The position numbers and the translations under genes are program-made. Under the pieces are notes generated by a model, which had not been told where the DNA came from, searched no databases, and saw nothing but the letters and a program-made list of their open reading frames with translations. A stretch of DNA of 64,000 nucleotides, taken from sequence record AP025670.1. The stretch is one strand, 5' to 3'. The stretch is from a plasmid. Of this stretch, positions 13,317 through 53,404 are shown in pieces (within the stretch, counting starts at the first letter, position 1; every line of letters begins with the position of its first letter).

Positions 13317-14759
<1,443 letters not shown>

Positions 14760-16021: not shown

Positions 16022-16117
16022 CCGGCGCTATACGGGAGAGCATAAAAATGTGTGGGGTATCCCTTTAATCAATTAATATGATCGTTCTCGTATTGATTGT
16101 GACTAAGAGGAAAAATC

Positions 16118-16699
16118 ATGTCTGTCTATAAGGTCAAAGTGGCTATTCGAGATATTAGCCCGATGATTTGGCGACGTTTTCGTGTTCACAGTGACATGTC
16201 ACTTGGCGCTTTCCATTTTCTCCTGCAATTTGCATTTGGTTGGGATAATGGTCACCTTCATTCCTTTCATATTCATGGCAAAGACTACGGTATTAGCTAT
16301 GAAGGTGGATTGAGCTTTTATGATAATCCTTGGGCAATTTCGCTTGCCTCATTTCAGTTTGAAAATCGCGATAAATTTACTTATGAATATAATTTTTACC
16401 GACATTGGTTATTAGATATCCGTATTGAAGCAATTGAATCAAAAGGAAATAAAACCACGCCATTTTGTCTTGGTGGCGAAGGAATGCCCGATGCTACCGC
16501 ATATGATGAAACCGAAGCCACGATTAAACTTTTAGAAGCCATAGCAGAAAGTAATGACTACACGACCTGGGCAGATATTCAGGAGTTTATCGATGAATAC
16601 AACCGAGTCAAATTTAACCGCCAACGCCTCAATCAGTTATTAAAGCGTTATGATTTTGACACTCCGAACTATTCACAAGGCTTAGATTGGACTCTCTAA
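16118..16699 (+). CDS. pRiA4b ORF-3-like family protein (193 aa).
   Basis: 'MSVYKVKVAIRDISPMIWRRFRV...' resembles the plasmid pRiA4b ORF3 domain family; assignment from memory. Confidence 0.45.
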   Translation: MSVYKVKVAIRDISPMIWRRFRVHSDMSLGAFHFLLQFAFGWDNGHLHSFHIHGKDYGISYEGGLSFYDNPWAISLASFQFENRDKFTYEYNFYRHWLLDIRIEAIESKGNKTTPFCLGGEGMPDATAYDETEATIKLLEAIAESNDYTTWADIQEFIDEYNRVKFNRQRLNQLLKRYDFDTPNYSQGLDWTL

Positions 16700-16779
16700 A
16701 GGTATACTTTTACGTAAATAGAGATCTCTGTCCTTAAATTGTCTCTAAAGGTGGTATAAATTGGGGTTTAGAGAGTATT

Positions 16780-17373
16780 ATGAAAACCTCTATAACCTTT
16801 ATGGATTATTCTATGATTTATGCTTACATTCGTATCAGTTCTGCTGAGCAGAATTCCGCACGACAAGAAATTGCGATTCAAAATTCAGGTTATAAAGTCA
16901 AAACCGTTTTTACTGATATTGCCAGCGGCAAAGATACGCATCGACCCAATTTACAACAATTATTAGCGTTACTCGTATCTGGAGATATGTTAATTGTTCA
17001 TTCTATTGATCGTTTATGCCGTAATATGATGGATATGTGTTATTTAACGTTAGATCTGAAACAGCGAGGAGTTTCACTAATTTTTCTCAAAGAAAATATT
17101 TGCTTTTCAGCGAATGAAAACAATCCATTACAAGAGCTTCAATTGCATATGATGTCCGCATTTAGTCAATTTGAACGAGCGCTAATTAGGGAACGCCAAG
17201 CGGAAGGAATTGCGGCTAAAAAACATCGAGGGGAACAAACGGGGCGCCCTCCTGCAGATAAGCGTAAGGTTGTCATGGTTGATGAATTAAAAGCGAAAGG
17301 CATTCGTCTTAAATTAGCCTGCGATAACGTTGGAATAGGTGTTTCAACTTACTATAAGTTAAGGAAAAAATAA
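16780..17373 (+). CDS. Serine recombinase (resolvase/invertase family) with a C-terminal HTH.
   Basis: 'YAYIRISSAEQNSARQ' catalytic-serine motif and 'DRLCRN' core. An alternative start at 16813 is possible. Confidence 0.7.
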   Translation: MKTSITFMDYSMIYAYIRISSAEQNSARQEIAIQNSGYKVKTVFTDIASGKDTHRPNLQQLLALLVSGDMLIVHSIDRLCRNMMDMCYLTLDLKQRGVSLIFLKENICFSANENNPLQELQLHMMSAFSQFERALIRERQAEGIAAKKHRGEQTGRPPADKRKVVMVDELKAKGIRLKLACDNVGIGVSTYYKLRKK

Positions 17374-17394
17374 TCCATTAACTTTGGAGGTCGT

Positions 17395-18786
17395 ATGATG
17401 AAGATCGTAGTGACAGTAAAGGTTATACACGATGATGGTTCCGCCTATCAAGAAACCTTATTGACGTTACAGAAAACCGCCGAACAAGGTGAACCTTTGG
17501 GGTTATCCCTTAACGAATCAAAGATATTACTCAATAGTACTCAATTAGCCATTATACAGGCCCAAAGCCAATCCTACATGCAAGCGCATCGAGAATGCCC
17601 ACTCTGTCATCAACGTCGTCAAATAAAAGATCATCAGACCCGCCATTATCATACTTTATTTGGCGTCATTCCGATTAAAGGGCTTCGGCTTTACCGCTGT
17701 CGCTGTGAGACAAATAATACAAAATCAGTGAGTTTGCTCAGTGAATGGCTACCCGAAAATACCCATCCCGAACTAAAATATATTGAAGCTAAATGGGCGT
17801 CATTGATGTCTTATGATCTTACCGTCGATAGATTAAAAGATATTTTACCGATCAATAACGCGCTAAATGCTTCCACAGTACGTAATCACTTAATCAGCGT
17901 CGCTAAACGGCAAGAAGCTGAGTTAGCCGAGCAACCCGATTTTCTCGATAAATTCGCTTATGACAATAAGCAGTTGCCTCGTCCAGGAAAACCGATGGTG
18001 ATTGGGTTTGATGGTGGTTACGTCCGAGATTGCCATAACCGAAAAAACAATTTTGAAATCATTACAGGAAAAGCTTACGCTGAAAACCTTCAAGCAAAAC
18101 GGTTTGGCTATGTTCACACATTTGAAAACAACCCAAGAAAACGCTTGCTTTCTGTACTTAATGCTCAAGGAATGCAAACGAACCAACAGATATCATTTTT
18201 GTCGGATGGGGCTGATAATTTGAGAATGATGCAAATCGGTATTTATCCCGAGGCCGAGCATATTTTAGATTGGTTTCATATTAGTATGCGCCTAACAGTG
18301 CTTAACCAGTGTGCTAAAGGTCTTGGCTCACAATCCTCAGGGATTGGTATAGAATTAAGAGATTTACTTGAAAAAACAAAATGGTACTTATGGCATGGTA
18401 ATGTCGATGAGGCGTTAGATAAGCTAGATAGTTGTTTATATATTTGTGATGAAGAAGAAGATAGCCAAGTTTATAAAAACAGTAAAAAAATGGTACGGTA
18501 TTTAGGGGAAGTGATAACTTATATTGATAATAACCAAGCTATGATCCCAAATTATGGGGAACGGTATCGCTATGGTGAACCCATTTCAACGGCATTTGTG
18601 GAATCAACAGTAAATGAAGTTATTGCAAAACGAATGGCAAAAAAACAGCAAATGCAGTGGAGCCAAGAAGGCGCACATTATCTTTTACAAACCCGAGTGG
18701 CCGTTTTAAATGATGAATTAGAGGGCATCTTTTACCGTTGGTATCCTAAACTAAGTAGCACTAAGTTAGATACAATGGCTGCGTAA
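17395..18786 (+). CDS. Transposase-like protein (463 aa) with an ISL3-type zinc-finger signature (CPLCHQRRQIKDH...LRLYRCRCE).
   Basis: Zn-finger motif recognised by eye. Size and position inside an inverted-repeat-bounded unit support a transposase, but the family is unverified. Confidence 0.45.
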   Translation: MMKIVVTVKVIHDDGSAYQETLLTLQKTAEQGEPLGLSLNESKILLNSTQLAIIQAQSQSYMQAHRECPLCHQRRQIKDHQTRHYHTLFGVIPIKGLRLYRCRCETNNTKSVSLLSEWLPENTHPELKYIEAKWASLMSYDLTVDRLKDILPINNALNASTVRNHLISVAKRQEAELAEQPDFLDKFAYDNKQLPRPGKPMVIGFDGGYVRDCHNRKNNFEIITGKAYAENLQAKRFGYVHTFENNPRKRLLSVLNAQGMQTNQQISFLSDGADNLRMMQIGIYPEAEHILDWFHISMRLTVLNQCAKGLGSQSSGIGIELRDLLEKTKWYLWHGNVDEALDKLDSCLYICDEEEDSQVYKNSKKMVRYLGEVITYIDNNQAMIPNYGERYRYGEPISTAFVESTVNEVIAKRMAKKQQMQWSQEGAHYLLQTRVAVLNDELEGIFYRWYPKLSSTKLDTMAA

Positions 18787-18818
18787 ATACCCCACACATT
18801 TTTATGCTCTCGCTATAC

Positions 18819-18856
18819 GGGGTCTGACGCTCAGTGGAACGAAAACTCACGTTAAG
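18819..18856. repeat. Tn3-family 38-bp terminal inverted repeat (GGGGTCTGACGCTCAGTGGAACGAAAACTCACGTTAAG), left end.
   Basis: Exact Tn3/Tn2 IR sequence. Confidence 0.9.
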
Positions 18857-22748: not shown

Positions 22749-23621
<873 letters not shown>

Positions 23622-23641
23622 CTGTCAGACCAAGTTTACTC

Positions 23642-24461
23642 GGCACTGTTGCAAAGTTAGCGATGAGGCAGCCTTTTGTCTTATTCAAAGGCCTTACATT
23701 TCAAAAACTCTGCTTACCAGGCGCATTTCGCCCAGGGGATCACCATAATAAAATGCTGAGGCCTGGCCTTTGCGTAGTGCACGCATCACCTCAATACCTT
23801 TGATGGTGGCGTAAGCCGTCTTCATGGATTTAAATCCCAGCGTGGCGCCGATTATCCGTTTCAGTTTGCCATGATCGCATTCAATCACGTTGTTCCGGTA
23901 CTTAATCTGTCGGTGTTCAACGTCAGACGGGCACCGGCCTTCGCGTTTGAGCAGAGCAAGCGCGCGACCATAGGCGGGCGCTTTATCCGTGTTGATGAAT
24001 CGCGGGATCTGCCACTTCTTCACGTTGTTGAGGATTTTACCCAGAAACCGGTATGCAGCTTTGCTGTTACGACGGGAGGAGAGATAAAAATCGACAGTGC
24101 GGCCCCGGCTGTCGACGGCCCGGTACAGATACGCCCAGCGGCCATTGACCTTCACGTAGGTTTCATCCATGTGCCACGGGCAAAGATCGGAAGGGTTACG
24201 CCAGTACCAGCGCAGCCGTTTTTCCATTTCAGGCGCATAACGCTGAACCCAGCGGTAAATCGTGGAGTGATCGACATTCACTCCGCGTTCAGCCAGCATC
24301 TCCTGCAGCTCACGGTAACTGATGCCGTATTTGCAGTACCAGCGTACGGCCCACAGAATGATGTCACGCTGAAAATGCCGGCCTTTGAATGGGTTCATGT
24401 GCAGCTCCATCAGCAAAAGGGGATGATAAGTTTATCACCACCGACTATTTGCAACAGTGCC
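23642..24461 (-). mobile_element. IS26 copy 2 (820 bp). No target-site duplication (flanks GTTTACTC and GACTCAGG).
   Basis: Exact IS26 IRs. Confidence 0.95.
23694..24398 (-). CDS. tnpA: IS26 transposase.
   Basis: Identical to the other copies. Confidence 0.95.
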   Translation of the reverse strand: MNPFKGRHFQRDIILWAVRWYCKYGISYRELQEMLAERGVNVDHSTIYRWVQRYAPEMEKRLRWYWRNPSDLCPWHMDETYVKVNGRWAYLYRAVDSRGRTVDFYLSSRRNSKAAYRFLGKILNNVKKWQIPRFINTDKAPAYGRALALLKREGRCPSDVEHRQIKYRNNVIECDHGKLKRIIGATLGFKSMKTAYATIKGIEVMRALRKGQASAFYYGDPLGEMRLVSRVFEM

Positions 24462-33151: not shown

Positions 33152-33971
33152 GGCACTGTTGCAAAGTTAGCGATGAGGCAGCCTTTTGTCTTATTCAAAG
33201 GCCTTACATTTCAAAAACTCTGCTTACCAGGCGCATTTCGCCCAGGGGATCACCATAATAAAATGCTGAGGCCTGGCCTTTGCGTAGTGCACGCATCACC
33301 TCAATACCTTTGATGGTGGCGTAAGCCGTCTTCATGGATTTAAATCCCAGCGTGGCGCCGATTATCCGTTTCAGTTTGCCATGATCGCATTCAATCACGT
33401 TGTTCCGGTACTTAATCTGTCGGTGTTCAACGTCAGACGGGCACCGGCCTTCGCGTTTGAGCAGAGCAAGCGCGCGACCATAGGCGGGCGCTTTATCCGT
33501 GTTGATGAATCGCGGGATCTGCCACTTCTTCACGTTGTTGAGGATTTTACCCAGAAACCGGTATGCAGCTTTGCTGTTACGACGGGAGGAGAGATAAAAA
33601 TCGACAGTGCGGCCCCGGCTGTCGACGGCCCGGTACAGATACGCCCAGCGGCCATTGACCTTCACGTAGGTTTCATCCATGTGCCACGGGCAAAGATCGG
33701 AAGGGTTACGCCAGTACCAGCGCAGCCGTTTTTCCATTTCAGGCGCATAACGCTGAACCCAGCGGTAAATCGTGGAGTGATCGACATTCACTCCGCGTTC
33801 AGCCAGCATCTCCTGCAGCTCACGGTAACTGATGCCGTATTTGCAGTACCAGCGTACGGCCCACAGAATGATGTCACGCTGAAAATGCCGGCCTTTGAAT
33901 GGGTTCATGTGCAGCTCCATCAGCAAAAGGGGATGATAAGTTTATCACCACCGACTATTTGCAACAGTGCC
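33152..33971 (-). mobile_element. IS26 copy 3 (820 bp). No target-site duplication.
   Basis: Exact IS26 IRs; flanks AAAATCAT and GATTATTT. Confidence 0.95.
33204..33908 (-). CDS. tnpA: IS26 transposase.
   Basis: Identical copy. Confidence 0.95.
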   Translation of the reverse strand: MNPFKGRHFQRDIILWAVRWYCKYGISYRELQEMLAERGVNVDHSTIYRWVQRYAPEMEKRLRWYWRNPSDLCPWHMDETYVKVNGRWAYLYRAVDSRGRTVDFYLSSRRNSKAAYRFLGKILNNVKKWQIPRFINTDKAPAYGRALALLKREGRCPSDVEHRQIKYRNNVIECDHGKLKRIIGATLGFKSMKTAYATIKGIEVMRALRKGQASAFYYGDPLGEMRLVSRVFEM

Positions 33972-37173: not shown

Positions 37174-37993
37174 GGCACTGTTGCAAATAGTCGGTGGTGA
37201 TAAACTTATCATCCCCTTTTGCTGATGGAGCTGCACATGAACCCATTCAAAGGCCGGCATTTTCAGCGTGACATCATTCTGTGGGCCGTACGCTGGTACT
37301 GCAAATACGGCATCAGTTACCGTGAGCTGCAGGAGATGCTGGCTGAACGCGGAGTGAATGTCGATCACTCCACGATTTACCGCTGGGTTCAGCGTTATGC
37401 GCCTGAAATGGAAAAACGGCTGCGCTGGTACTGGCGTAACCCTTCCGATCTTTGCCCGTGGCACATGGATGAAACCTACGTGAAGGTCAATGGCCGCTGG
37501 GCGTATCTGTACCGGGCCGTCGACAGCCGGGGCCGCACTGTCGATTTTTATCTCTCCTCCCGTCGTAACAGCAAAGCTGCATACCGGTTTCTGGGTAAAA
37601 TCCTCAACAACGTGAAGAAGTGGCAGATCCCGCGATTCATCAACACGGATAAAGCGCCCGCCTATGGTCGCGCGCTTGCTCTGCTCAAACGCGAAGGCCG
37701 GTGCCCGTCTGACGTTGAACACCGACAGATTAAGTACCGGAACAACGTGATTGAATGCGATCATGGCAAACTGAAACGGATAATCGGCGCCACGCTGGGA
37801 TTTAAATCCATGAAGACGGCTTACGCCACCATCAAAGGTATTGAGGTGATGCGTGCACTACGCAAAGGCCAGGCCTCAGCATTTTATTATGGTGATCCCC
37901 TGGGCGAAATGCGCCTGGTAAGCAGAGTTTTTGAAATGTAAGGCCTTTGAATAAGACAAAAGGCTGCCTCATCGCTAACTTTGCAACAGTGCC
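37174..37993 (+). mobile_element. IS26 copy 4 (820 bp), opposite orientation to copies 1-3. No target-site duplication.
   Basis: Exact IS26 IRs; flanks AAAACTAT and TGATTAAT. Confidence 0.95.
37237..37941 (+). CDS. tnpA: IS26 transposase.
   Basis: Identical copy. Confidence 0.95.
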   Translation: MNPFKGRHFQRDIILWAVRWYCKYGISYRELQEMLAERGVNVDHSTIYRWVQRYAPEMEKRLRWYWRNPSDLCPWHMDETYVKVNGRWAYLYRAVDSRGRTVDFYLSSRRNSKAAYRFLGKILNNVKKWQIPRFINTDKAPAYGRALALLKREGRCPSDVEHRQIKYRNNVIECDHGKLKRIIGATLGFKSMKTAYATIKGIEVMRALRKGQASAFYYGDPLGEMRLVSRVFEM

Positions 37994-39984: not shown

Positions 39985-40440
39985 GAATCTTCCCCCCAGC
40001 ACACACCGCAAATTTAGTTAGTCATTGATTTATATAGACTTTACTAAACAACAATATTTGAGGCAAGTCCGACGAGCAGGACGAAAAACCCCCCTGACAC
40101 ACACCATTCACGATCCGGGTAATGCACAGCGCACAGAAATGTTTAAAAAAGAAGCAAATTAGGAGGGGGATTTATCAGGAATTCCCGTCAAACCCCTTGG
40201 CACACACCGAACGAAAGCCAATTCCTTCCCCCTGACACACACTTTACCGGTGATAATTACGCCCCGTGATACTCACTCGGAGGGAAAACCACCAATTTTC
40301 CCCCTGACGCACACCTTGCCAGTGGCATTCCCCCCTGACACACACCTTGCCAGAGAGGCGATCAGTTCCCCCTGACACACACCTTTGCAATGACTGTTAA
40401 CCCCCCTGACACACACTTTTCATTGACAGCCAAACCACAG
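39985..40440. repeat. Array of eight direct iterons (consensus CCCCCTGACACACACC, period about 33-40 bp) downstream of repA.
   Basis: Repeats read directly: CCCCCCAGCACACACC, CCCCCTGACACACACC x5, CCCTTGGCACACACC, CCCCTGACGCACACC. Confidence 0.75.
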
Positions 40441-40446
40441 GCACAC

Positions 40447-41313
40447 TTATTCGTTGATTACACTTAGCTTTGGACTTCGCTTGTGAATGATGAGGTAATT
40501 CTCTTGTCCTTTTTTCACCATAGAAGCGTCCAAATAGCCGATATCTATCAGCTTAGTAATCGCTTTTTTGATGATTCGATTCTGTTCTTTAACCTGACTG
40601 ATCAGAGACAACCTTTCACGTAGGCGTTCAAAAGAGATAGGAGCCGGGTTACTTGGAAGGCTTGCAAGGAAGGTATACAGGGCTTGTGCAACTTCTAGAC
40701 GTGGAAGGGCTTTTATTGCATGTAGTTGAAGAACAACACGATAATCAAAGTAGTATAACTCCCATAATCGCTCGTCTGCTTCCAGTTCCACAACGTCTGT
40801 ATCGGCATTGAAATAGGCTATCTTTATGAGGCCGGTATGATATGCAGATTGTGAATCTTTGCCTCGCTTAAATGAGATCGATTTCCCCCTGATTTTACGA
40901 AGCGATTCATCTATATGCGCTCTCAGTTTCTTGTCCAGTTTTTTACCGGGGAAACCACAATCTTTTGCGAACTCAGAAAACTTTAGTTTGATGCGGTTTG
41001 ACGAAATCCCGTACTTGCTGAACGCTTTGACTATGCCGATCCACACCTTGAAATCAGTATCCATATCAAGACGTTCACCAGTGATTTTTATGTCAGTAAA
41101 CCCCTCAAGTCTTGCAAATTCAAAGGTAGAACTTAATTCACTGACATCAATCATCGGGCTGTAGTCAGATGACCTTGATGGTTTAGGCACAAACAGGCCA
41201 AGGCGCATAAAGGCCACTGGTTGAATTGTATTCAGTTCATTAACTGTTAATGGTTTTTGTTTTTCTTCCGTGTTACCAAATAACACATCAGATATAACTA
41301 GTTGAGTTTCCAT
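40447..41313 (-). CDS. repA: Iteron-type replication initiation protein (Rep_3 family, RepFIB-like), 288 aa.
   Basis: Flanked by iterons on both sides. Winged-helix Rep_3-like sequence; the internal Met (METQLVISDV) is chosen because upstream in-frame codons run through the iterons. Confidence 0.8.
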   Translation of the reverse strand: METQLVISDVLFGNTEEKQKPLTVNELNTIQPVAFMRLGLFVPKPSRSSDYSPMIDVSELSSTFEFARLEGFTDIKITGERLDMDTDFKVWIGIVKAFSKYGISSNRIKLKFSEFAKDCGFPGKKLDKKLRAHIDESLRKIRGKSISFKRGKDSQSAYHTGLIKIAYFNADTDVVELEADERLWELYYFDYRVVLQLHAIKALPRLEVAQALYTFLASLPSNPAPISFERLRERLSLISQVKEQNRIIKKAITKLIDIGYLDASMVKKGQENYLIIHKRSPKLSVINE

Positions 41314-41334
41314 AATAAAATAATTCCCCCCCAC

Positions 41335-41470
41335 GTAAATGCTACGATTGTGGAAAAGTATCACATTTTCCCCGTGACGCCCACCTTTTTTCCCCTCAGC
41401 ACACACCCAAATCCCCGTAACACACACTTTCTTCCCCTCAGCACACACCTTTTTCCCCTCAGCACACACC
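41335..41470. repeat. Five direct iterons upstream of repA (CCCCGTGACGCCCACC, CCCCTCAGCACACACC x3, CCCCGTAACACACAC).
   Basis: Read directly from the sequence. Confidence 0.75.
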
Positions 41471-41509
41471 GAAAAACGTTGTAAGCCTTGTGGCAGTAAG
41501 GCTACAGAC

Positions 41510-41590
41510 CACGGGGATCTTTTTGGTTTTATCTGGATCTCTCTATGGATCTATTATTGGATCTACACGGTGGATATGTGGATAACTTTA
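41510..41590. other. Putative oriV core: four GATC sites spaced about 12 bp apart (41516, 41536, 41548, 41560) and a perfect DnaA box TGTGGATAA (41577-41585).
   Basis: Motifs read from the sequence, adjacent to the iterons. Confidence 0.5.
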
Positions 41591-41692
41591 AATGATGGTA
41601 ATGTGGAGGAATATCTGACGCGCTACGCTTGTCCAACCGCTGCCGGGCAATGAAAGGTAAACCCATTCATTACCCGACAACGGTTCCCGGAA

Positions 41693-41971
41693 CTACCCCA
41701 AAGCCATCGGTTCTAACCGTAAGTATACAGTTTCATAGATAAATTTAAGAAGTCCGTTGAAGTATACGCGTTGATGCTTATCTGCTGCCCCTGTAGCCTG
41801 ATCGATTAATACCTCCAGACCGTTCTTAGGCTGATTAAGTGAGACATTATTTAGTAGATTATATTGCTCAACGAATCCATCTGTACCAATAGCCTCTATC
41901 ACTATCAATCTGAAAGCAGGATCTCTCAACAGAGCCAGTTCATGAGGTGTATAGATTTTGATGATTTTCAT
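41693..41971 (-). CDS. Hypothetical small protein (MKIIKIYTPHELALLRDPAF...).
   Basis: Internal Met with an AAAGGGAA RBS. Confidence 0.35.
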   Translation of the reverse strand: MKIIKIYTPHELALLRDPAFRLIVIEAIGTDGFVEQYNLLNNVSLNQPKNGLEVLIDQATGAADKHQRVYFNGLLKFIYETVYLRLEPMALG

Positions 41972-42217
41972 CTGAGTTTGTTCCCTTTCTGGTAAGACAG
42001 GTTTATCGAACCGCATCAGAATACATCTGATAAGCTTTGTCTTCTGGTAGTTCAGCCAGAAAAACAAGGATACCTCCGTTTTTCTTCCAAATATTTTTAT
42101 AAATATTTGATTTATCGGCTATAGAATTTAAGTCTTTAACGTTAATGTGAATAGCGAGGCAGGAGATGAGAGGCTATAGCGCGATCCTTCGGTAAACGCT
42201 CTGTTTGCCTGTCATGA

Positions 42218-42874
42218 TTATTTCAAAACGCTACTCAGGAAATGAATAGCCGGACGGTACACAGGGAATGACATAGCCCACAAGGCCGCGCACATACAGA
42301 AGAACGAGACAAAATACGATATCTTTGTCCAGTAGGTGAAAACCACCAGCGCCTGACGCCCTCTGCCCTTTACAACGAATCGCAGCAGGCTAACAGCGGT
42401 TGTGACAATGAGAAAAATAACTTCCGGCAGAGAGAACAGCGTCAGACCCAGCAACAACATGTCGCTTTTCGTATCATAAAAAAGCAATTTTGCCATTTTA
42501 GGGTCAACATCTACCAGTTTCCCATAAACAGGTTCATTAGCCACAGAAGCCTCTGTATCGCTCTGTATGAGGCGCTTTAGATCTTCCCTACCCATACCTG
42601 CTAAATCAGCTGTCATGTACTCTATGTAGCGCATATGCGCCTTATCGTTCGTTCCGGGCACGTTAACCAGTAATGCCGTGGTATCCGGCTTTTCCCTGTC
42701 CCGTATCACAGATACCCAGTTGGTATTGTAAGGGGCGACCCGAGAGGCCATGAGGTAGACACGTAAATCATCACTACGAGTGACGGCCTGACTACCTATA
42801 ACTGCGATGAACACCATGACTATCAGTGTTAGCCAGTAGCTCCAGAAAAACCATTTAGATAATCTTGATGCCAT
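42218..42874 (-). CDS. Hypothetical membrane protein (N- and C-terminal TM segments), 218 aa.
   Basis: ORF track; hydrophobicity. Confidence 0.45.
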   Translation of the reverse strand: MASRLSKWFFWSYWLTLIVMVFIAVIGSQAVTRSDDLRVYLMASRVAPYNTNWVSVIRDREKPDTTALLVNVPGTNDKAHMRYIEYMTADLAGMGREDLKRLIQSDTEASVANEPVYGKLVDVDPKMAKLLFYDTKSDMLLLGLTLFSLPEVIFLIVTTAVSLLRFVVKGRGRQALVVFTYWTKISYFVSFFCMCAALWAMSFPVYRPAIHFLSSVLK

Positions 42875-42891
42875 TCCATTCCCCGACAGTT

Positions 42892-43254
42892 TTAGCGGTG
42901 TGCGTACTGGTTGTTCACCCTCTTTTTGTTGGTGCTTTTAGCGAGTTTCTTCCTGTATTTCACATGAGAATTTCGGGATATGCAGGTGATCAGCGTTGAT
43001 TGACATACAACAAATATAAACCAATTAGTGAAGAAATATTTTCTCTCTTCTTTGCACTCATAATACATTGACGTGACGCGCATAAACTCAGTGAGGATAA
43101 TATCCACCCCCCTCACCTCTTCGGTGAAGAGCTGCGCCTTTGATAATTCTTCCAGTAATCCATAGGTGCCACGGAAACCACGCTCTTTCCATCGTTCCTG
43201 AGCGTGCCGGGTAATGACGAGTGTATTGACATCGAGAAAGCTATTTTCGTGCAT
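42892..43254 (-). CDS. Hypothetical 120-aa protein, driven by a TTCGAC promoter module at about 43311.
   Basis: ORF track; promoter motif. Confidence 0.4.
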   Translation of the reverse strand: MHENSFLDVNTLVITRHAQERWKERGFRGTYGLLEELSKAQLFTEEVRGVDIILTEFMRVTSMYYECKEERKYFFTNWFIFVVCQSTLITCISRNSHVKYRKKLAKSTNKKRVNNQYAHR

Positions 43255-43406
43255 GAATGAACCCTCTTAACGTGTAGTAATGATTAAAAGGCTAACACCG
43301 CACGGAAAGGGGTCGAATAGGATATCGGTTAAAAAATATACAGTTAAGAGTTAAAGAAAAACCGCCGATTAAGCGGTCTTGTTTGGGTATCTTTAGGATA
43401 GGGAGT

Positions 43407-43685
43407 CTATGCCTTTTTTCGTTCTTCAATAACGAATTCAGCGGCACATACCAGCGTTTCATGAGTGATACCATAGTTAGCATCATGTGAGCTGATCGCA
43501 TGTTTCAGGGCATCACGAGCAATTTCATCACTAATCTCTTCATTGTTAAAATCTTGTACAGCAGCTTTGACATCATCGGAATGCCAGATAATTGTACCAA
43601 TCTGTTCATCTTGATTTTTGTATTGAGAAAGATGAGCGATGATTTCTTTAACTGTACCGTACATAGTGATCTCCTGATTTTTCAT
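43407..43685 (-). CDS. Hypothetical 92-aa acidic protein.
   Basis: ORF track; TTCGAC promoter module at about 43775. Confidence 0.45.
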   Translation of the reverse strand: MKNQEITMYGTVKEIIAHLSQYKNQDEQIGTIIWHSDDVKAAVQDFNNEEISDEIARDALKHAISSHDANYGITHETLVCAAEFVIEERKKA

Positions 43686-43855
43686 TTAGGACAGCGGTTG
43701 CGTTTAGCTCTGGCTGTCATTGATTGTTTGTATCAGTCTTGCTGATGTAGTTATTTTCCCACGGAGGTAAGGGCGGTCGAATAGTCAAAAGCAAAATAGT
43801 TTTATAAAAAAAAACCGCATTGGGCGGGCTTATTTTTGGTGCTGTAGGAATGTAG

Positions 43856-44368
43856 TCAGAAGGTTTTCATGACAGACCCACAGCACGGGCATATCTTGCT
43901 TTGTCCTTCCTCAGTTAATACCCTTAAAAGTATTTTTCTCAAAATCCCCCATAGGCACAGACGAACGAGAGTAATGGAGATTGCAAAGCATCCGCCGTAC
44001 CCTACCGCCGCGTTAGTGATAACAGAGTAGTATTCCTCCCCTATTACCTCTTTTGCCAGTGGCTCCGCTTTCAGGGCGTTAACAGTAACCATGTAAAAAA
44101 AGCGCAGGTGTTCGGCAAGGTACACAGCAGTAACAAAAATGATAATTGTTACCGTGGCCTGAACGAACACGAGCCGGTTAATGCCGTGGCGAAGTTCCAT
44201 TATCAGCGCCAGCATGAGCGATCCAGAAAAGGCCAACTCAAGCGGAAAGGGCTTTTGCAATCCTGAAAGGTAGATGGTCAGCTCATGAAAGAAAAGGGCG
44301 CAGCCTCCCGCGCTTAACCCCACCAGCAGAAAACCACGCCAATATGCTTTAAATGAAAAATTCTTCAT
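43856..44368 (-). CDS. Hypothetical polytopic membrane protein with a C-terminal CPCCGS motif, 170 aa.
   Basis: ORF track. Confidence 0.4.
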   Translation of the reverse strand: MKNFSFKAYWRGFLLVGLSAGGCALFFHELTIYLSGLQKPFPLELAFSGSLMLALIMELRHGINRLVFVQATVTIIIFVTAVYLAEHLRFFYMVTVNALKAEPLAKEVIGEEYYSVITNAAVGYGGCFAISITLVRLCLWGILRKILLRVLTEEGQSKICPCCGSVMKTF

Positions 44369-44378
44369 AGGCTCAGGC

Positions 44379-45029
44379 TCAATTGCTGAGAGAGTTAATC
44401 GTTACTTCGGGTTCATCGCCCAGTTCAATCATATTACCGAAGCCGTTCAGCAGGACAGGTCTGCCGTTCTGAATGGTGGCATGGGTTCGCCACCCTTCCC
44501 CGCCGTTCTCCCCCCAGCGGGCTAACCCCTCCGAGTCCATCTCTTGCTCACTGGCAAAGAAGGTTGCGCCGGGCAGCTTTTCAGCTGACAGATTAATGGT
44601 TGGATCAGCCAGCACACAGATACCGTTTTGCGTCATGAAGTACATGAGGCGTTCTGCCTTTTGCTCACAGCTGATAACAAAGCCGTTAGGCATGAGACGC
44701 GTTGTTTTGCTCGTGACGCAGATCAGATTATCCACCTTCTCACACCCTGCCATTAGCAGTATTTTCACATCAGCGGAAACATACACCTCGAGCAGCGCAG
44801 ACAGTACATCTGCTTGCTCAGGGATGTTGGCAGTAAGTGTTTTGGTTTTCCCGGCCACATCGGTATCGACAGAGGAATGGGTCATAATCTCTCTCAGTAC
44901 CACGCTGCCCGGCGATTCTGGGTCAATCCATGAATCGGACGGGTTAGGCCGTGACAGAGCGCTTATCCATGCTGAGGGAGCGTTACCGTCAAAAGTGAAG
45001 GTGAGGGTTGCCGTGCTATTAGAAGACAT
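44379..45029 (-). CDS. Hypothetical 216-aa protein.
   Basis: ORF track; TTCGAC-N17-GATAAT promoter at about 45129. Confidence 0.45.
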   Translation of the reverse strand: MSSNSTATLTFTFDGNAPSAWISALSRPNPSDSWIDPESPGSVVLREIMTHSSVDTDVAGKTKTLTANIPEQADVLSALLEVYVSADVKILLMAGCEKVDNLICVTSKTTRLMPNGFVISCEQKAERLMYFMTQNGICVLADPTINLSAEKLPGATFFASEQEMDSEGLARWGENGGEGWRTHATIQNGRPVLLNGFGNMIELGDEPEVTINSLSN

Positions 45030-45254
45030 AGTGATTTCCTCCAGTGTGGATGCTGCGAGCTATTACGATTAGCCTCGATATGATTACAAGGTGTTATGCG
45101 ATAAAAATTATCCCATGAGCACCATAGGGGTCGAAGATTTTGAGAGATGAAATTCGAAAGAGATTTACAGGATTTCAAGATGAAATCTAGCCTTGTTAAT
45201 CACTAAAATCAGTAACTTAAACGAAAAGTCATTACAGGATAATTAGAGATAAAA

Positions 45255-45282
45255 AAACCCGGATTAACCGGGTTTAGAAGGT
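45255..45282 (-). terminator. Rho-independent terminator of the par operon (CCCGGTTAATCCGGG + T7 on the minus strand).
   Basis: Stem-loop plus T-run immediately after the parB stop. Confidence 0.65.
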
Positions 45283-45299
45283 TTCCAAAATCAGACAGG

Positions 45300-46286
45300 T
45301 TAACTATCTTCTTCGATGACAGACCGGATAAACGCGTCAATTTTTTCATGGGCTTCTTTGCTGATGCGACTGAACTCATACGTAAACTTTCGCGCTCTGG
45401 TATCTGATTTTTTACGCGCGTATTTACGCTTATCGTCATACTCTTTTAGCGTTTCAAAAACAGGTTTTTCTATTACCGGCTTGTTTTCCAGCGTTGAGAA
45501 ATTGCTTTCAAAAAGCTTCATAACGCGTTCTTTGTAAAGGTCTGGTTGCAGGGACTCTTTTTCTAATTCTTTTGCTGCAAGAACGACATTCGCTACGAGG
45601 GTATCTATATCAATCTTTTTTTTCTCTGCCTGAATAGAAATATTCAGAAGAATTTTATAATCAGCGAATACCAGCAACGACTGAATAGGGAAAACAGAAA
45701 CCATCTTTTCGGGAACTGTTGCAGCCTGAATGGCACGGGAAACGGCAGCGGTAGACATGTTTTGCCGTTCCGCAATATCCTTCTGCGTTATACCCTGATC
45801 ACGCATAGCGATGAGAGTCATCCCTACTTCACGGATGTTATGCTCTTTTGCTGTCTGTATCTCAGCTGCGAGCTGGCGGGCTTCTTCGGCGGTCATCTCA
45901 CTTTTAGTGTACATAACCCGGAGGCCAACACCACAAAGTAATGCAGCTGCACGACGGCGTGACCCATCAAGGATTTCAATCCGCCCTTCCACCAGCCGAC
46001 CAATGGCAGGAAAGAACTGTTGGTTTTGCAGTGTACTGGTGATGTCTGCAAGGGATTCCTGTGTCAGAGCGTTTTGGTCACGCCCGTTAATTTTGGGGTC
46101 AACGTAGGTGCGAGTTTCAACCTGCTCGGCTGTGATAGTCTCAGTTTGAAACATAACCTTTCTGCCTGATTTCAGGACAAAGCGGAGACTCTCGCCAGAG
46201 GCAGCGGATAATGGAACGTTAATCCCGGAAAGAGGTGATTCGCTAAATGTTCTTCCGAGAACTTCTCTTGGTTTTTTCTGGGTCAT
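45300..46286 (-). CDS. parB: Partition protein ParB/SopB family (centromere-binding), 328 aa.
   Basis: ParB-box-like 'GRLVEGRIEILDGSRRRAA', HTH 'ITQKDIAERQNMSTAAVSRA'. Start overlaps the parA stop. Confidence 0.8.
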   Translation of the reverse strand: MTQKKPREVLGRTFSESPLSGINVPLSAASGESLRFVLKSGRKVMFQTETITAEQVETRTYVDPKINGRDQNALTQESLADITSTLQNQQFFPAIGRLVEGRIEILDGSRRRAAALLCGVGLRVMYTKSEMTAEEARQLAAEIQTAKEHNIREVGMTLIAMRDQGITQKDIAERQNMSTAAVSRAIQAATVPEKMVSVFPIQSLLVFADYKILLNISIQAEKKKIDIDTLVANVVLAAKELEKESLQPDLYKERVMKLFESNFSTLENKPVIEKPVFETLKEYDDKRKYARKKSDTRARKFTYEFSRISKEAHEKIDAFIRSVIEEDS

Positions 46287-47488
46287 GCGGCACCCCTCAA
46301 TAGCTCAATACGGTCAAACACGGCACGGGAAAAGTCCTCAGCTGCAACACGGGCGGCTCTTAGTGCATCCTGACTGCCTGCATACGTTTGAGGGTTCGCG
46401 CTGATTACGGTGTCAAATGATTCTCCGCAGCGTTCAAACCCCTCCAGACGAGGGAGTGTGGCATCGAGCATATCCGCGCCAAAAACATCTCTCGCAAAAC
46501 TATGTGTCTTTTTGTGGTCATCTTTATTTGAGACTTTCGACATATAGCCGACATTGGCGATAATTTTGCTTGGTAAACCGGAGTCCTCCAGCATCTGAAT
46601 CAGCTCAGGCAGTCGAGTGAGGTATTTCAGTGTTGAGTGGAAATCCACTTGCGGAGGCGGTACAGGGGTCATCAGCATGTGACTTGCCGCTAAAGTATTA
46701 ATCAGGAACGGATCTAAATGAGGGCCGGTATCCACAAAAATGAAATCGTAGTCGTCGCTGATTTTGTCGATGATATTCTCATTTAGAACGTTGTGCTCGT
46801 TCATGCCCGGAAGGTACTGGCTGCATAGAGATGACCAGCGAGAGGCGATAAACGCATCTTCTATTGATGCAGGGATGATATCAACGCCCGGCACGATAGA
46901 AGGCTTAACGAACTCATTCAGAATTTCTTCACGGGTCAGGTCTTTATTGAGCATGGCCTGAGCACTGGAATTATCGACAGTACCGATACTATGGTGATGG
47001 TTCAGGAACATGGTTGAGGACGATTGAGGGTCGAGGTCAATAACAAGGATGCGCAAGTTTTCATGCAGCAAGGTGGGATGGGTACGCATACCATGCGCCA
47101 TCGTCACGGTGGATACGGTTTTTGAAACCCCGCCTTTCAGGTTAACAACAAAAATAACGAACGCTTTTCCGCGCTTTTCCCGGTAGGTTTTTATACCCCG
47201 GTGCGCATAGATATCGCTGATGTTCTGAATGGTCATAGCATACTGAGTGGCAACGCCCCCATGACGTTTTCCGAACTGATAACCATTTGCCTCCATTTCC
47301 TCAACGGCATTATCTACAGCGCGTTTGGTCAGGTGCGGCATTTTTACGACGGCGGCTTTTGAATACGTTTTATAGAACTCCGTCTGGTCAAGCTCATCCC
47401 TTTTAGATTGGATCTGGTCGGTGAGCCAGTTAAGCATGATGCTGGCACGCTTACCCGTGTCCAACAATCTGTCAAAATTATCTGACAT
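46283..47488 (-). CDS. parA: Partition ATPase ParA/SopA (type Ia, long N-terminal HTH extension).
   Basis: Deviant Walker A 'NLKGGVSKTVSTVTMA'. The internal Met (MSDNF) with a GGGG RBS is preferred. Confidence 0.85.
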   Translation of the reverse strand: MSDNFDRLLDTGKRASIMLNWLTDQIQSKRDELDQTEFYKTYSKAAVVKMPHLTKRAVDNAVEEMEANGYQFGKRHGGVATQYAMTIQNISDIYAHRGIKTYREKRGKAFVIFVVNLKGGVSKTVSTVTMAHGMRTHPTLLHENLRILVIDLDPQSSSTMFLNHHHSIGTVDNSSAQAMLNKDLTREEILNEFVKPSIVPGVDIIPASIEDAFIASRWSSLCSQYLPGMNEHNVLNENIIDKISDDYDFIFVDTGPHLDPFLINTLAASHMLMTPVPPPQVDFHSTLKYLTRLPELIQMLEDSGLPSKIIANVGYMSKVSNKDDHKKTHSFARDVFGADMLDATLPRLEGFERCGESFDTVISANPQTYAGSQDALRAARVAAEDFSRAVFDRIELLRGAA

Positions 47489-47587
47489 ATGAACCCCTTT
47501 GATGTGTTGTTTTTTTAGGATTATATCAGAAATATCGACACGTTCTAGTTTTTGCAAAACTACAAACAACATCATACGCAGGAAAAA

Positions 47588-47735
47588 CGGTCATTCAGAT
47601 GTTATACAACCATCATTAGAGGCTTATATAACATCTATTTAAGTGTCATTTGAATGTCATTTGAGTGTCATTAAAGGGTGATATGAGCTTTGTTTGACTG
47701 TCATTCGGATGTCAATTAGACGTCATTCAGACGCA
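47588..47735. repeat. Seven copies of heptamer GTCATT(C/T) in direct orientation upstream of parA. Putative par operator or centromere-like site.
   Basis: GTCATTCAGATG, GTCATTTGAATG, GTCATTTGAGTG, GTCATTAAAGG, GTCATTCGGATG, GTCAATTAGACG, GTCATTCAGACG. Confidence 0.5.
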
Positions 47736-47883
47736 AAATCGAACATCCGTTAAGTGCTATTGATAAGCAAACCATGAGTAATGGTATGATTTTGTTTGCT
47801 ATTTGTTGTGATATGTTCTTTCTGTGTGCTGCTACTTCTATCCCTTGCCTTTCTGGTAAAACTGATATTTTAAGGCGTAGCAT

Positions 47884-48207
47884 TCACGCCTGAAAGAATG
47901 CTTTCTTTAAGAACAGGTAAAAACGTCCACCAGCATCAAACATGCACAGATTTTCTTCAATGAATTTTTCAACTTTTTCCGTTGGTGCGGTCTGATAATG
48001 ACGGATCAGACGCAGCTTATTTGAGAGCGCACGTATGCGGTTTGGGTTATGGCTGATGCGAGAATGAATACTGCTGGTTGCAGCACAGGACACCGCGAGA
48101 GCCAATTCGGTCTTATAGGCAGCTGCTTCACAGGCGACAACCTGAGTACGGGCAGTAGCCTTTGCTGAGGGGCTGAGGTCTTGATAGTAATTAAGTGTAT
48201 CAATCAT
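47884..48207 (-). CDS. Hypothetical 107-aa protein.
   Basis: ORF track. Confidence 0.4.
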   Translation of the reverse strand: MIDTLNYYQDLSPSAKATARTQVVACEAAAYKTELALAVSCAATSSIHSRISHNPNRIRALSNKLRLIRHYQTAPTEKVEKFIEENLCMFDAGGRFYLFLKKAFFQA

Positions 48208-48379
48208 TATTTATTTTTCCTTAACCAGAAACCATGTTGTGACAATCCACTCGGGTATTGCATTTTTTCTTGGATTGATTTTATCACTGGCAAAGAGATG
48301 CCGAAGCGAACAGGGGGATAGAGTGCTTAACAGAGATGGCTGTATGCGTTGTGATGTGACCGGGGATATGTTCAGGCAC

Positions 48380-48503
48380 AAAAAAACCCGATACGGGATC
48401 GGGTTAATTTGTCTCTAAATGAGAGGGATAAAATTATTTCATCTGCAATGTACTGGTGAGGTAATTGCTGATGTTTACTACGTACTGTCAGTACCTGCCA
48501 ACT
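48380..48503 (-). ncRNA. Candidate antisense sRNA (about 120 nt). Minus-strand promoter -35 TTGACA (48534-48539) and -10 TAATCT (48510-48515), with a terminator CCCGATCCCGTATCGGG + T7 at 48380-48403. Its 5' end is complementary to 48695-48713 in the opposite-strand mRNA 5'UTR.
   Basis: Promoter and terminator read from the sequence; 18/19 complementarity to the downstream target. Confidence 0.3.
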
Positions 48504-48787
48504 GATTAAAGATTACCCCCTTATCGTTATTTATGTCAACCGAAATACTTCGAGGGGGGAGCGGGCAAGGTATAATATTCTCAGTAGGCAGATTGTGTAT
48601 CTGCGGTATGTCTCAGGTTTGATGGGTTACGACGCAGGTTTCCATCCCGATCAGAAACAGGTGGTGCTGTCTGATTTGCTTCAACCTGAGAGTGCTGTCA
48701 GTTCCTGCCAACTACAGGTGCGCGGGGTGATGGGAAACCCAAAAGCAATCGCTCCGATGGCACACTCTCCATCAAAGGAGAGAACGA

Positions 48788-48883
48788 GTGGTAACTCTGG
48801 CAACTATCCTGCTGGTTTTGCAGATTGTGCATATCAGCTTGCAGATTATCGTTGTGATCAAGCAACTGACCCGTAGCCGGTAG
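48788..48883 (+). CDS. Candidate type I toxin: 31-aa hydrophobic peptide (M)VTLATILLVLQIVHISLQIIVVIKQLTRSR with a GTG start, at the 3' end of a promoter-to-terminator transcript (-10 TATAAT 48571-48576; terminator 48909-48937).
   Basis: AAGGAG 7 nt upstream of the GTG. Single TM-like helix with a basic C-terminus, a long structured 5'UTR and an intrinsic terminator. Confidence 0.3.
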   Translation: MVTLATILLVLQIVHISLQIIVVIKQLTRSR

Positions 48884-48908
48884 TGATGGTGAAGGGAACT
48901 TGAAACAA

Positions 48909-48937
48909 GGCAGAGGCTGACCCCCTCTGCCTTTTTC
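48909..48937 (+). terminator. Rho-independent terminator (GGCAGAGGctgacccCCTCTGCC + T5), also positioned at the psiA 3' end.
   Basis: Stem-loop plus T-run. Confidence 0.55.
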
Positions 48938-48938
48938 G

Positions 48939-49661
48939 TTATGCCGGTAGTGCCAGAGGAAGGGCTGAGCGACACAGGCACAGGTCGCGCTCGCTAGATG
49001 TGCTTATCACGTAATCCAGTTCATTAAGCAGGTCATACAGGGTATCGCACCAGCGCCAGTCTGTAGGGGCAGAAGCAATCCAGAATGCACCCCACCAGCG
49101 AACCAGTATATTTCTAAGTTCCCAGTCACTGACACCAGCCATTTCTAATTCGTCTCGCCAGTGAGCCAGCCACGCCTTATGTTCCCCCGGCAGGCAAAAT
49201 TGCAAACCTACCCATACCGCACTTTGGGCATTTTCAGACGCAGACATTTCTTCGCGTTTTTGTTTTTGCTCGCGGCGGGCACTCCGGGCAGTGGCGATTT
49301 TCTCCCGATGACTTATTCGCTGATGCTCACCAGACTGGACAGCCGGGAACATAGCAGTGATAACCGCTTTTGACAGGGGGATGATCCACGTTTTCCCCCT
49401 GCTTTCTATTATCGTGTCGATAGCCCGTATGTAGTCGGTCTTTGTGGCTTCTCCCCGGTAGCTGGGGTTATATGCCGGGTCAACCTGTCGCACATGAGCG
49501 GACGTGATCCCCGCCTTCCCCGTGAACTCACGGAAAAAGGCTTTTGCATAGGGATATTCGCCTAGTGAACGCCCGGCTTCTGTCCGGGCTTCAATGTAGG
49601 CAATGGCAGACATGGCGCACTGCTGGAGTCGGTTTAGAGGTACAAGCGCGGTGGAAGCCAT
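48939..49661 (-). CDS. psiA: PsiA-like protein (plasmid SOS inhibition protein A family), 240 aa.
   Basis: Family assignment from recalled PsiA features (about 239 aa, leading-region context). Paralogue of 35420..36151. Confidence 0.5.
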   Translation of the reverse strand: MASTALVPLNRLQQCAMSAIAYIEARTEAGRSLGEYPYAKAFFREFTGKAGITSAHVRQVDPAYNPSYRGEATKTDYIRAIDTIIESRGKTWIIPLSKAVITAMFPAVQSGEHQRISHREKIATARSARREQKQKREEMSASENAQSAVWVGLQFCLPGEHKAWLAHWRDELEMAGVSDWELRNILVRWWGAFWIASAPTDWRWCDTLYDLLNELDYVISTSSERDLCLCRSALPLALPA

Positions 49662-50176
49662 TACGACACCACTGATTCATTTTTGCGGTTAGCAGTGGCA
49701 GATTCCCCGCGCCCTGCTCTGCCGGGCGGAACGTCTGTGGCAAGATGCCCGTGACCTGAGCGCGAAAGCAGTTCCAGAAAGTCAGTGTCAAACGTCGTGT
49801 CTACTCGGATATTTGTTAAAAACTCCAGACGGAAAGTTTCGTTCTTATAATCGCCCGCACATAAAAACCCGCCTTCCTGTATCAAGAATCTTGTCTGGCA
49901 ATTCAGGTCTTGCTGTCCCTCAATGAACAAGGACAGATCCGAAGGGATGTAGACAGGAAGCCCGAGCCACTCAGAAACAAAGCAGCGCCCTTTCAGCCCA
50001 TAGGTATTGTGTGGTCTGTAGAAGAACGGGAATAGCTTTTGTACTAACTCGCCGGTACGCGGGTCGTTAAATGTCAGGAACACACCAAAAGGCCCGGATT
50101 TAAGTACCTCGATAGCCTCCAGCATTGTCAGGGATACAACGTGCTGAGGATAATTCAGGCGGATGGTGTTAGTCAT
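49661..50176 (-). CDS. Hypothetical 171-aa protein in the psiB position (ATGA overlap with psiA). No recognisable PsiB similarity.
   Basis: Operon position only. Confidence 0.35.
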   Translation of the reverse strand: MTNTIRLNYPQHVVSLTMLEAIEVLKSGPFGVFLTFNDPRTGELVQKLFPFFYRPHNTYGLKGRCFVSEWLGLPVYIPSDLSLFIEGQQDLNCQTRFLIQEGGFLCAGDYKNETFRLEFLTNIRVDTTFDTDFLELLSRSGHGHLATDVPPGRAGRGESATANRKNESVVS

Positions 50177-50447
50177 TGCTGATGTGCTCCTGAGTGGTGT
50201 AACTCTTTTTTTCGCCGGGGATTGTATCGAGCTTGTTTAGCTCTGCATCGTAGATAATCGCATCACCGGTCGCTGATTCGTGACTACTGATAAGGCTGTA
50301 GCCGACCGTCTGTAACTCTTCGTACCGATAGTCAGCTATATGCTGTGAGTAGGCTGTTCCCCACGAACTATTGTTGCGCTCTTCAAAGCGTGAGGCGCGG
50401 TAGTGCTGTTTTAGAAATTCGTAATGCTGTTCTGGCGTAACCATCAT
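50169..50447 (-). CDS. Hypothetical 92-aa protein.
   Basis: ORF track; TTCGAC-N17-GATAAT promoter at about 50509. Confidence 0.4.
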   Translation of the reverse strand: MMVTPEQHYEFLKQHYRASRFEERNNSSWGTAYSQHIADYRYEELQTVGYSLISSHESATGDAIIYDAELNKLDTIPGEKKSYTTQEHISND

Positions 50448-50521
50448 TCCCCCCGGAGATGTCTGTTTTATCTGAGATGAATTATCTCACGGGGGTAAAG
50501 GGGGTCGAATAGAGAGGGGAG

Positions 50522-50947: not shown

Positions 50948-51044
50948 TCACCCTTCCTTCTCTGCTTGTTCTGTTACAACAGATTATCTCATCCAAAGTA
51001 AGGGGGTCGAACAGGTGAAGGGATCATAAACAGAAAGTTAAAGT

Positions 51045-52493: not shown

Positions 52494-52529
52494 GTGTTTT
52501 CCTTCTCCAATTTTAAAACCAAGTAAATG

Positions 52530-52823: not shown

Positions 52824-52828
52824 TACTC

Positions 52829-53206: not shown

Positions 53207-53404
53207 GACAGGCTCCCCCCCATCGTCTGTAAAGTACAGAAAGGCTAACATGTCAACGAAGGGGGCCGAAGCGTTTCAGAGGAAATAACAGGTGAAATTT
53301 ACAGGATTTCACGATGAAATCCGATAGATTAATTACTTTAAATCAGTTAGTTACGATTGTTTTCATTACAGGATAAATCATCGCGTCAATTACGGCATAG
53401 TCAG

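Follow-up and report, generated by a model that had tools for sequence, protein, structure and literature searches.

A Tn6368 copy beside tet(D), and the apparent preference of Tn6368 and ISKpn19 for insertion at the tips of Tn3-family inverted repeats

The ISAzba1/ISKpn19 clade of the ISKra4 family is defined by a gene for a PRiA4_ORF3 protein, with or without a gene for a serine recombinase (PMC3942029). In 2014 Guerillot et al. listed ISKpn19 in the ISAzba1 group (their Table S1, 'pRiA4b_ORF-3, S Recomb'), gave ends of the form ...CTCTC for ISAfe13, ISAra2 and ISKpn19, placed ISKra4-type enzymes in the Mutator superfamily and proposed that the recombinase resolves cointegrates (PMC3942029). 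Tn6368 was named in Providencia rettgeri plasmids, in 2017 and 2022 (PMC5554438; PMC9431670). Here we analyse 64,000 nucleotides of plasmid DNA (sequence record AP025670.1; this whole stretch is called the window below), in which a three-gene segment bounded by inverted repeats lies between tetA(D) and the 38-bp inverted repeat (IR) at the tnpA end of a Tn3/Tn2 transposon. The segment at 16036-18811 is very probably an intact Tn6368, an element of the ISKra4 family (ISAzba1/ISKpn19 clade) found in Providencia and Moellerella plasmids. Its position at the tip of the Tn3 repeat recurs in other copies of Tn6368 and in ISKpn19.

All 2776 of 2776 bp match, at 100%, the Tn6368 copies in KX832928 (p06-1619-NDM) and AP025671 (pNR1418-2); repeats, genes and the 9-bp length of the target duplication are alike, and the window differs only in insertion site. 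Searching for the unit elsewhere, a check proposed in the first-pass annotation of this DNA, found it at 100% end to end in nine other plasmids (from Providencia rettgeri, Moellerella wisconsensis and one Klebsiella IncC plasmid) and recovered both the termini and 9-bp duplications. Variants of 92-95% identity are present in five more plasmids, and no match was found in complete genomes of E. coli. KX832928 holds two inverted copies around a toxin-antitoxin/repA segment just downstream of blaNDM-1, and Marquez-Ortiz et al. describe such a layout for the element registered as Tn6368 (PMC5554438). The AP025671 copy is flanked by CTAAGGAGC, in agreement with the '9 bp TSD (ctaaggagc) flanking Tn6368', that is, the target-site duplication, reported in 2022 (PMC9431670). 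Tn6368 carries the PRiA4_ORF3 gene of the clade inside its repeats, and its terminal repeats, like those of ISKpn19, end in ...GCTCTC.

The first-pass annotation could not assign the segment to a named insertion sequence (IS); the segment is 100% identical to Tn6368 and a structural twin of ISKpn19. The annotation was right to see a discrete, repeat-bounded unit with passenger genes, but not to call it uncharacterised, as Tn6368 is already named and its three-gene architecture already catalogued. The pairing of a recombinase with a DDE transposase, which it had thought unusual, was described for the ISAzba1/ISKpn19 clade in 2014 (PMC3942029).

Three co-oriented open reading frames (ORFs) lie between the tetA(D) stop codon, at 16021, and the Tn3 tnpA gene, and the tnpA, tnpR and blaTEM ORFs of Tn3 come after the 38-bp IR. 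ORFs and domain matches agree with the earlier description of three co-oriented genes inside inverted repeats between tetA(D) and the Tn3 IR. The extent given then, 16023-18818 (from 1 bp past the tetA(D) stop codon up to the Tn3 IR), has to be narrowed to 16036-18811, with the duplications outside the element. Likewise the repeat-bounded unit is real, but its terminal repeats are not imperfect with a 24-bp core: they are 25 nt long and 100% complementary (16036-16060 versus 18787-18811), and the second pair of coordinates had been off by one. Since identical full-length copies of the 2776-bp unit turn up in varied contexts, these repeats are the true termini and not a chance pairing. Ends placed one base further outward, in view of the frequent flanking G/C, were rejected for Tn6368, as the terminal base would then vary among copies.

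The first 7 nt of the left duplication copy are native tet(D) downstream sequence and its last GG copies the tip of the Tn3 IR, while positions 18819-18820 are shared by the right copy and the first two G of that IR; 7 nt separate the right end of Tn6368 from the IR. The G+C content is 38.6% in Tn6368, 56% in the tet(D) segment and 50% in Tn3. Coordinates are collected in Table 1.

Table 1. Tn6368, its genes and candidate sites, and the adjoining target in the window.
Feature	Position	Strand	Remarks
Complete Tn6368, ISKpn19-like, ISKra4 family	16036..18811	+	2776 bp; 100% end-to-end to nine plasmid copies
Left copy of 9-bp target-site duplication	16027..16035	.	GCTATACGG
Left terminal inverted repeat	16036..16060	+	GAGAGCATAAAAATGTGTGGGGTAT; homologous to ISKpn19 repeats GAGAGCATGAAAAACCTCGGGGCAGC
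Passenger gene 1, PRiA4_ORF3 (MM3350-like) protein, 193 aa	16118..16699	+	Pfam PF07929, E 3e-32
Dyad site A, candidate recombinase binding/res subsite (inferred)	16693..16724	.	TCTCTAAAGGTATACTTTTACGTAAATAGAGA
Dyad site B, candidate recombinase binding/res subsite (inferred)	16742..16774	.	TCTCTAAAGGTGGTATAAATTGGGGTTTAGAGA; just upstream of recombinase start codon
Passenger gene 2, small serine recombinase (resolvase type), 197 aa	16780..17373	+	PF00239, E 4e-38, residues 13-152
ISKra4-family (Mutator/IS256-like) DDE transposase, 463 aa, N-terminal CxxC...CxC zinc-binding motif	17395..18786	+	
Right terminal inverted repeat	18787..18811	-	complement of 16036-16060
Right copy of 9-bp target-site duplication	18812..18820	.	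GCTATACGG
Target: 38-bp inverted repeat, tnpA end of Tn3/Tn2	18819..18856	+	GGGGTCTGACGCTCAGTGGAACGAAAACTCACGTTAAG; intact

We compared the flanks of every fetched copy of Tn6368, its variants and ISKpn19 and found 15 independent junctions with the tip of a Tn3-family repeat. Eleven are events of Tn6368 and its variants (the window, L004, L005, L008 on its right side, L009, L011, L024, L239, L242, L244 and L245) and four are events of ISKpn19 (L015, L016, L236 and L237). The element end lies 8 bp outside the GGGG tip in 14 of the 15, and 7 bp outside it in the window. At least nine different repeat sequences are targeted, namely those of Tn3, a Tn1721-like element, the tnp end and the mer end of Tn21, a Tn5393-like element and four others, and most are backed by an adjacent Tn3-type tnpA or mer gene. 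Both orientations occur, the left element end facing the repeat in 7 junctions and the right end in 8. Exact 9-bp duplications were found for eight copies (seven of Tn6368 or its variants and one of ISKpn19, L236), all eight at Tn3-family tips; one of the eight is split over two plasmids (right flank in L008, left flank beside copy 2 in L227). Every one of these duplications takes in the first one or two bases of the Tn3-family repeat, and therefore the repeat was there before the element. Among 55 distinct flanks, CCCC stands at the tip offset 9 times, where about 0.2 would be expected by chance, and most flanks lacking a repeat end in A/T-A/T-G, which is how the far side of a tip insertion is expected to look. 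At the level of sequence comparison, these junctions show preferential insertion of Tn6368 and ISKpn19 8 bp outside GGGG tips in either orientation, a preference demonstrated only for these two elements and on plasmids.

The targeted repeats have little in common beyond GGGG and an A-rich stretch, which points to recognition of the general repeat architecture or of a bound protein. The same scarcity of shared sequence past GGGG would also suit a mere preference for a short motif (two A/T bases followed by a G run) rather than recognition of the IR, with Tn3-family ends simply being common in resistance plasmids. A G stands beside the element end in 63-69% of the relatives' flanks, the two preceding bases are A/T-rich, and Tn3-family ends fit this description exactly, with GGGG coming after an A/T-rich 5-bp duplication. 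However, WWGGGG is estimated to occur about 200 times per 100 kb on both strands, against a handful of Tn3-family tips per plasmid, whereas all eight duplication-proven insertions are at tips and no duplication-flanked copy was seen at a G run outside a Tn3-family repeat. We therefore regard a bare motif preference as unlikely.

One flank resembles the tip junctions in part. On the right of L012 (NZ_CP123368.1, a 92% variant) the distance from the element end to the start of a GGGGTTAATGG... sequence is 5 bp instead of 8 bp; TTCAGG is present in both flanks with a one-base shift, and no Tn3-type gene is annotated nearby. This could be an atypical or degraded tip insertion.

Several observations weigh against reading Tn6368 and its relatives as elements that enter Tn3-family tips with a 9-bp duplication and resolve their own cointegrates. 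Many copies have neither a duplication nor an adjacent Tn3 repeat. Distant relatives with the shared end motif, sought in species-representative genomes and by an end-motif scan of metagenomes whose many chance matches were filtered by tblastn, were found in Photorhabdus, Xenorhabdus, Photobacterium and Morganella genomes and in metagenomes (49 distinct flanks). These distant genome and metagenome relatives lack the Tn3-tip signature (CCCC at 7-9 bp in 0 of 49 distinct true metagenome flanks) and, where both ends are present, almost all lack duplications, so that targeting is not shown beyond the Tn6368/ISKpn19 clade. The shared 9-mers expected from replicative intramolecular inversion between the two copies in p06-1619-NDM are absent. 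IS256-type enzymes move by copy-out-paste-in, and a resolvase is not obviously needed. Finally, the curated table of 2014 gives a direct-repeat length of 0 for the ISAzba1 group (PMC3942029).

On this last point, eight copies have exact 9-bp duplications and most others have none; we read this as primary insertions making 9 bp and the listed 0 reflecting rearranged copies. Copies elsewhere that lack a duplication would be secondary rearrangements, an explanation that may not extend to every one of them. Four copies in Providencia plasmid or chromosomal contigs (L003, L019, L020 and L024) display all four combinations of two left and two right flanks, and a matching 9-bp pair is found in L024 alone; natural shuffling of flanks therefore takes place by recombination between copies, whether homologous or recombinase-mediated.

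In the widespread qnrS1 context (L016, L033-L035, L229-L234) ISKpn19 has its right end within a truncated Tn3-family resolvase gene, and the left flank differs among plasmids, being a Tn3 repeat at 8 bp in L016. This suggests adjacent deletions after an original tip insertion. Exact-protein look-ups of the ISKpn19 transposase returned mostly this same qnrS1 context, on short contigs.

Seven of the metagenome relatives (L116, L159, L217, L135, L145, L184 and L199) share the end motif GAGAGCATRAAAA-N5-GGGG. In metagenomes the transposase gene stands alone (about 1.5 kb), is accompanied by PRiA4_ORF3 (2.1 kb) or belongs to a three-gene form with the recombinase divergent (2.8 kb). In L029 (2605-5430) and L145 (335-3156), direct repeats, TATTT and AATCCT, appear only if each end is extended by one base (G...C), and about 0.3 such matches are expected by chance. 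Distant members of the clade may have different ends or a different duplication length.

We found no published account of Tn3-tip targeting in the searchable literature, with ISfinder, TnCentral and subscription journals outside the search. The full proposition, that these elements are site-specific hunters whose Mutator-type DDE transposase targets a site 8 bp outside the tips of almost any Tn3-family repeat, and that this is not already described, seems to us evenly balanced; that judgement is a joint one, as we consider it very likely that the preference is real and combine this with the chance that the unsearched sources hold no description. If true, it would give these elements a harmless landing site on most resistance plasmids, account for the fact that they are constantly found with Tn3-family remnants and with qnrS1, and help to explain their build-up in resistance regions. 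It would also supply a rule for reconstructing the histories of such regions, provide a manageable model for studying how a Mutator-type bacterial transposase selects its target, and correct the listed absence of direct repeats in the ISAzba1/ISKpn19 clade.

The two genes upstream of the transposase gene were called pRiA4b-ORF3-like and serine recombinase in the first-pass annotation, and the Pfam matches (PF07929, E 3e-32; PF00239, E 4e-38) bear out both calls. The PRiA4_ORF3 protein matches PDB entry 2i1s (E 1.7e-10), the sole solved relative and itself an uncharacterised MM3350-like protein, and its gene holds the same position in ISKpn19 and in the metagenome relatives. The recombinase frame has an 11-residue N-terminal extension before MIYAYIRISS, and a start at Met12 (16813) is possible; several public annotations give a 186-aa recombinase from this second ATG, which would leave dyad site B further upstream of the start. 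Both dyad sites, which have TCTCTA(AA) arms, immediately precede the recombinase gene. A related motif, GTCTATAAAGGTATACGTTTTC, occupies the position of dyad site A in ISKpn19, though the proteins are only 55% identical. The 95% variant (L009) retains dyad site B; the 92% variant (L011) has a substitution in the left arm of the site (TCTCTT) and has lost the exact dyad. The dyads are candidate recombinase sites for resolution of cointegrates or dimers or for exchange of flanks.

It could be argued that only the transposase matters and that the two genes upstream of it were caught between the repeats as inert cargo. Transposase-only relatives exist (L217, 1486 bp; L116, 1561 bp), L159 lacks the recombinase, and PF07929 is a domain without known function. 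Yet Tn6368, its 92-95% variants, ISKpn19 and a third enterobacterial element (L235) all keep the two genes intact and in one order, and metagenome relatives with transposases about 42-45% identical to the ISKpn19 enzyme also carry both, with the recombinase reversed. Moreover, the PRiA4_ORF3 clade is monophyletic (PMC3942029) and the DNA motif between the genes is conserved. Inert cargo is to our mind an improbable description. The PRiA4_ORF3 protein is probably a conserved accessory factor that might have a role in regulation or target choice, and perhaps helps the transposase to direct primary insertions to the tips.

The order of events at tet(D) can be read from the flanking DNA. The native tet(D) region reads ...TGACCGGCGCTATAC/AGGCAGCG... 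and runs on into a dehydrogenase gene, and the homology of the window to it ends after GCTATAC, exactly at the start of the Tn3 IR. We rebuilt the empty site by removing Tn6368 and one 9-mer (600 nt), and this sequence has matches of 100% identity and full coverage in 11 Citrobacter plasmids; the tetA(D)-Tn6368 junction itself was absent from the plasmid collection searched. In the reconstructed order, Tn3/Tn2 thus stood 12 bp past the tetA(D) stop codon before Tn6368 arrived. Because the native homology ends at the Tn3 IR and the empty site exists in 11 plasmids, it was Tn3/Tn2 that removed the tet(D) downstream genes. The first-pass annotation had correctly noted that these genes are missing, but had the Tn6368 unit replace them, whereas the break coincides with the Tn3 IR and exists without Tn6368. 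As the empty site pre-exists, Tn3 came first and a clean insertion of Tn6368 followed. The converse, in which Tn6368 or ISKpn19 is already resident and Tn3-family transposons arrive at a set distance from its ends, can appeal to the high mobility of Tn3-family elements and to the fact that adjacency alone gives no order of arrival; it is nonetheless very hard to credit, given that the 9-bp duplications flank the ISKra4-type element and in eight cases hold the first 1-2 nt of the repeat, and that 11 plasmids have the tet(D)-Tn3 junction without Tn6368.

Four copies of IS26, with 14-bp terminal repeats, lie at 13317-14136, 23642-24461, 33152-33971 and 37174-37993. The first two bracket tetR(D), tetA(D), Tn6368 and a truncated Tn3 with blaTEM, a block that looks like an IS26 pseudo-compound transposon or translocatable unit. 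At 23621-23655 IS26 cuts Tn3/Tn2 a few bases past the blaTEM stop codon (...taactgtcagaccaagtttactc/GGCACTGTTGCAAA), so the right-hand repeat of Tn3 and its 5-bp duplication can no longer be checked. Read exactly, the local history has the tet(D) module first, Tn3/Tn2 second and Tn6368 third, the whole block being enclosed by IS26. Farther along, the backbone at 40000-60000 (RepB, ParB, PsiA and many hypothetical proteins) is 99-100% identical to plasmids of Providencia rettgeri and P. huaxiensis, e.g. NZ_OL908907.1, which places the window in a Providencia-type plasmid, the kind that usually hosts Tn6368. The practical value lies in correct annotation: the segment is to be recorded as Tn6368, not as an unknown hybrid.

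The transposase matches the curated NCBIfam model NF033572 (transpos_ISKra4) at 381.1 bits over residues 22-441, against a cut-off of 205, which makes it a member of the ISKra4 family. In 34 homologues the cysteines C68, C71, C102 and C104 are invariant, as are D206, D292-W-F-H295 (D292-x2-H295), E403 and E408, and D271 is kept in at least 90%. An AlphaFold2 model of moderate confidence (predicted local distance difference test, pLDDT, 70; below 50 in segment 391-419, which holds the candidate E) has an RNase-H-like beta1-3/alpha/beta4/alpha/beta5 core, in which the first strand holds D206 and D271 comes just past the fourth. Foldseek gave the IS256-family ISCth4 transposase 6xg8 as the best match of the model (E 8e-6), and a sequence search of PDB chains gave no meaningful match. 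The predicted core and the ISCth4 match agree with PMC3942029, which assigns ISKra4-type enzymes to the Mutator superfamily. With an RNase-H-like fold, a D-D-E triad and the C/D-x2-H signature of a Mutator-type DDE core, the modelled protein is probably a Mutator/IS256-type DDE enzyme whose N-terminal domain would bind zinc and DNA.

An ISL3-like zinc finger had been proposed for this protein. The cysteine motif is real, but the ISL3/ISNCY affiliation gives way to the ISKra4 model and an ISCth4-like predicted fold: no ISL3 model is among the NCBIfam and Pfam matches, and the protein does not belong to the ISL3 family. That the segment is an uncharacterised ISL3/ISNCY-like element or small unit transposon that displaced the tet(D) downstream genes, as its CxxC...CxC motif, its passenger genes and the indeed missing downstream genes (the native neighbour gene being identified) might suggest, can be given almost no weight, since the transposase scores well over the ISKra4 cut-off and matches no ISL3 model, the element is already named and catalogued, and the truncation point is the Tn3 repeat and pre-exists without it.

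We propose that the DDE transposase would recognise the 25-bp terminal repeats and integrate through cuts staggered by 9 bp, a stagger that the duplications show directly. In the window Tn6368 entered the 9 bp GCTATACGG straddling the tip of the Tn3 IR and left the IR intact. The transposition pathway could involve a circle, like that of IS256, or cointegrates. The two dyad sites upstream of the recombinase gene are probably the substrate of the serine recombinase, which would resolve cointegrates or dimers or swap flanks between copies, and the PRiA4_ORF3 protein might serve regulation or target choice as an accessory factor.

Among described systems, the IS256 family provides the best structural match (ISCth4, 6xg8), and its transposases are likewise DDE enzymes of the Mutator superfamily. 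Sequence identity is only 12-13%, and IS256 elements are without passenger genes. Tn3-family transposons resemble Tn6368 in combining a DDE transposase, a serine resolvase and a candidate res region (an analogy drawn in PMC3942029). The Tn6368 transposase is, however, an unrelated Mutator-like protein of 463 aa against about 1000 aa, the repeats are 25 against 38 bp and the duplication is 9 against 5 bp. The 463-aa protein has no match to PF01526, the domain of the ~1000-aa Tn3-type TnpA, and with neither 38-bp repeats nor a 5-bp duplication Tn6368 falls outside the Tn3 family.

ISKpn19 (2851 bp, common beside qnrS1) has the same three genes in the same order, PRiA4_ORF3, serine recombinase and a 463-aa transposase. 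In both elements the terminal repeats read GAGAGCAT(A/G)AAAA...GGGG, and ISKpn19 likewise makes a 9-bp duplication (L236) and inserts 8 bp outside Tn3-family tips. The transposases are nonetheless only 55% identical and megablast detects no DNA similarity; the ISKpn19 repeats are imperfect (22/26) where those of Tn6368 are perfect, and the hosts are Enterobacteriaceae for ISKpn19 and Morganellaceae for Tn6368.

Tn6368 and ISKpn19 share with IS4321/IS5075 (IS1111 family) a site-specific association with the 38-bp repeats of the Tn3 family. IS4321/IS5075 use a DEDD transposase with a seeker RNA guide and insert in one orientation inside the repeat, with no duplication and only in Tn21-type repeats (in part from PMC11187229). 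In contrast, Tn6368 and ISKpn19 have DDE enzymes and insert outside the tip, in both orientations and with a 9-bp duplication, leaving the repeat intact and accepting many repeat sequences. Tn6368 therefore has none of the IS1111-type traits (a DEDD enzyme, insertion inside the repeat, no duplication), and together with ISKpn19 it would represent a second, mechanistically distinct repeat-targeting class beside the RNA-guided IS4321/IS5075.

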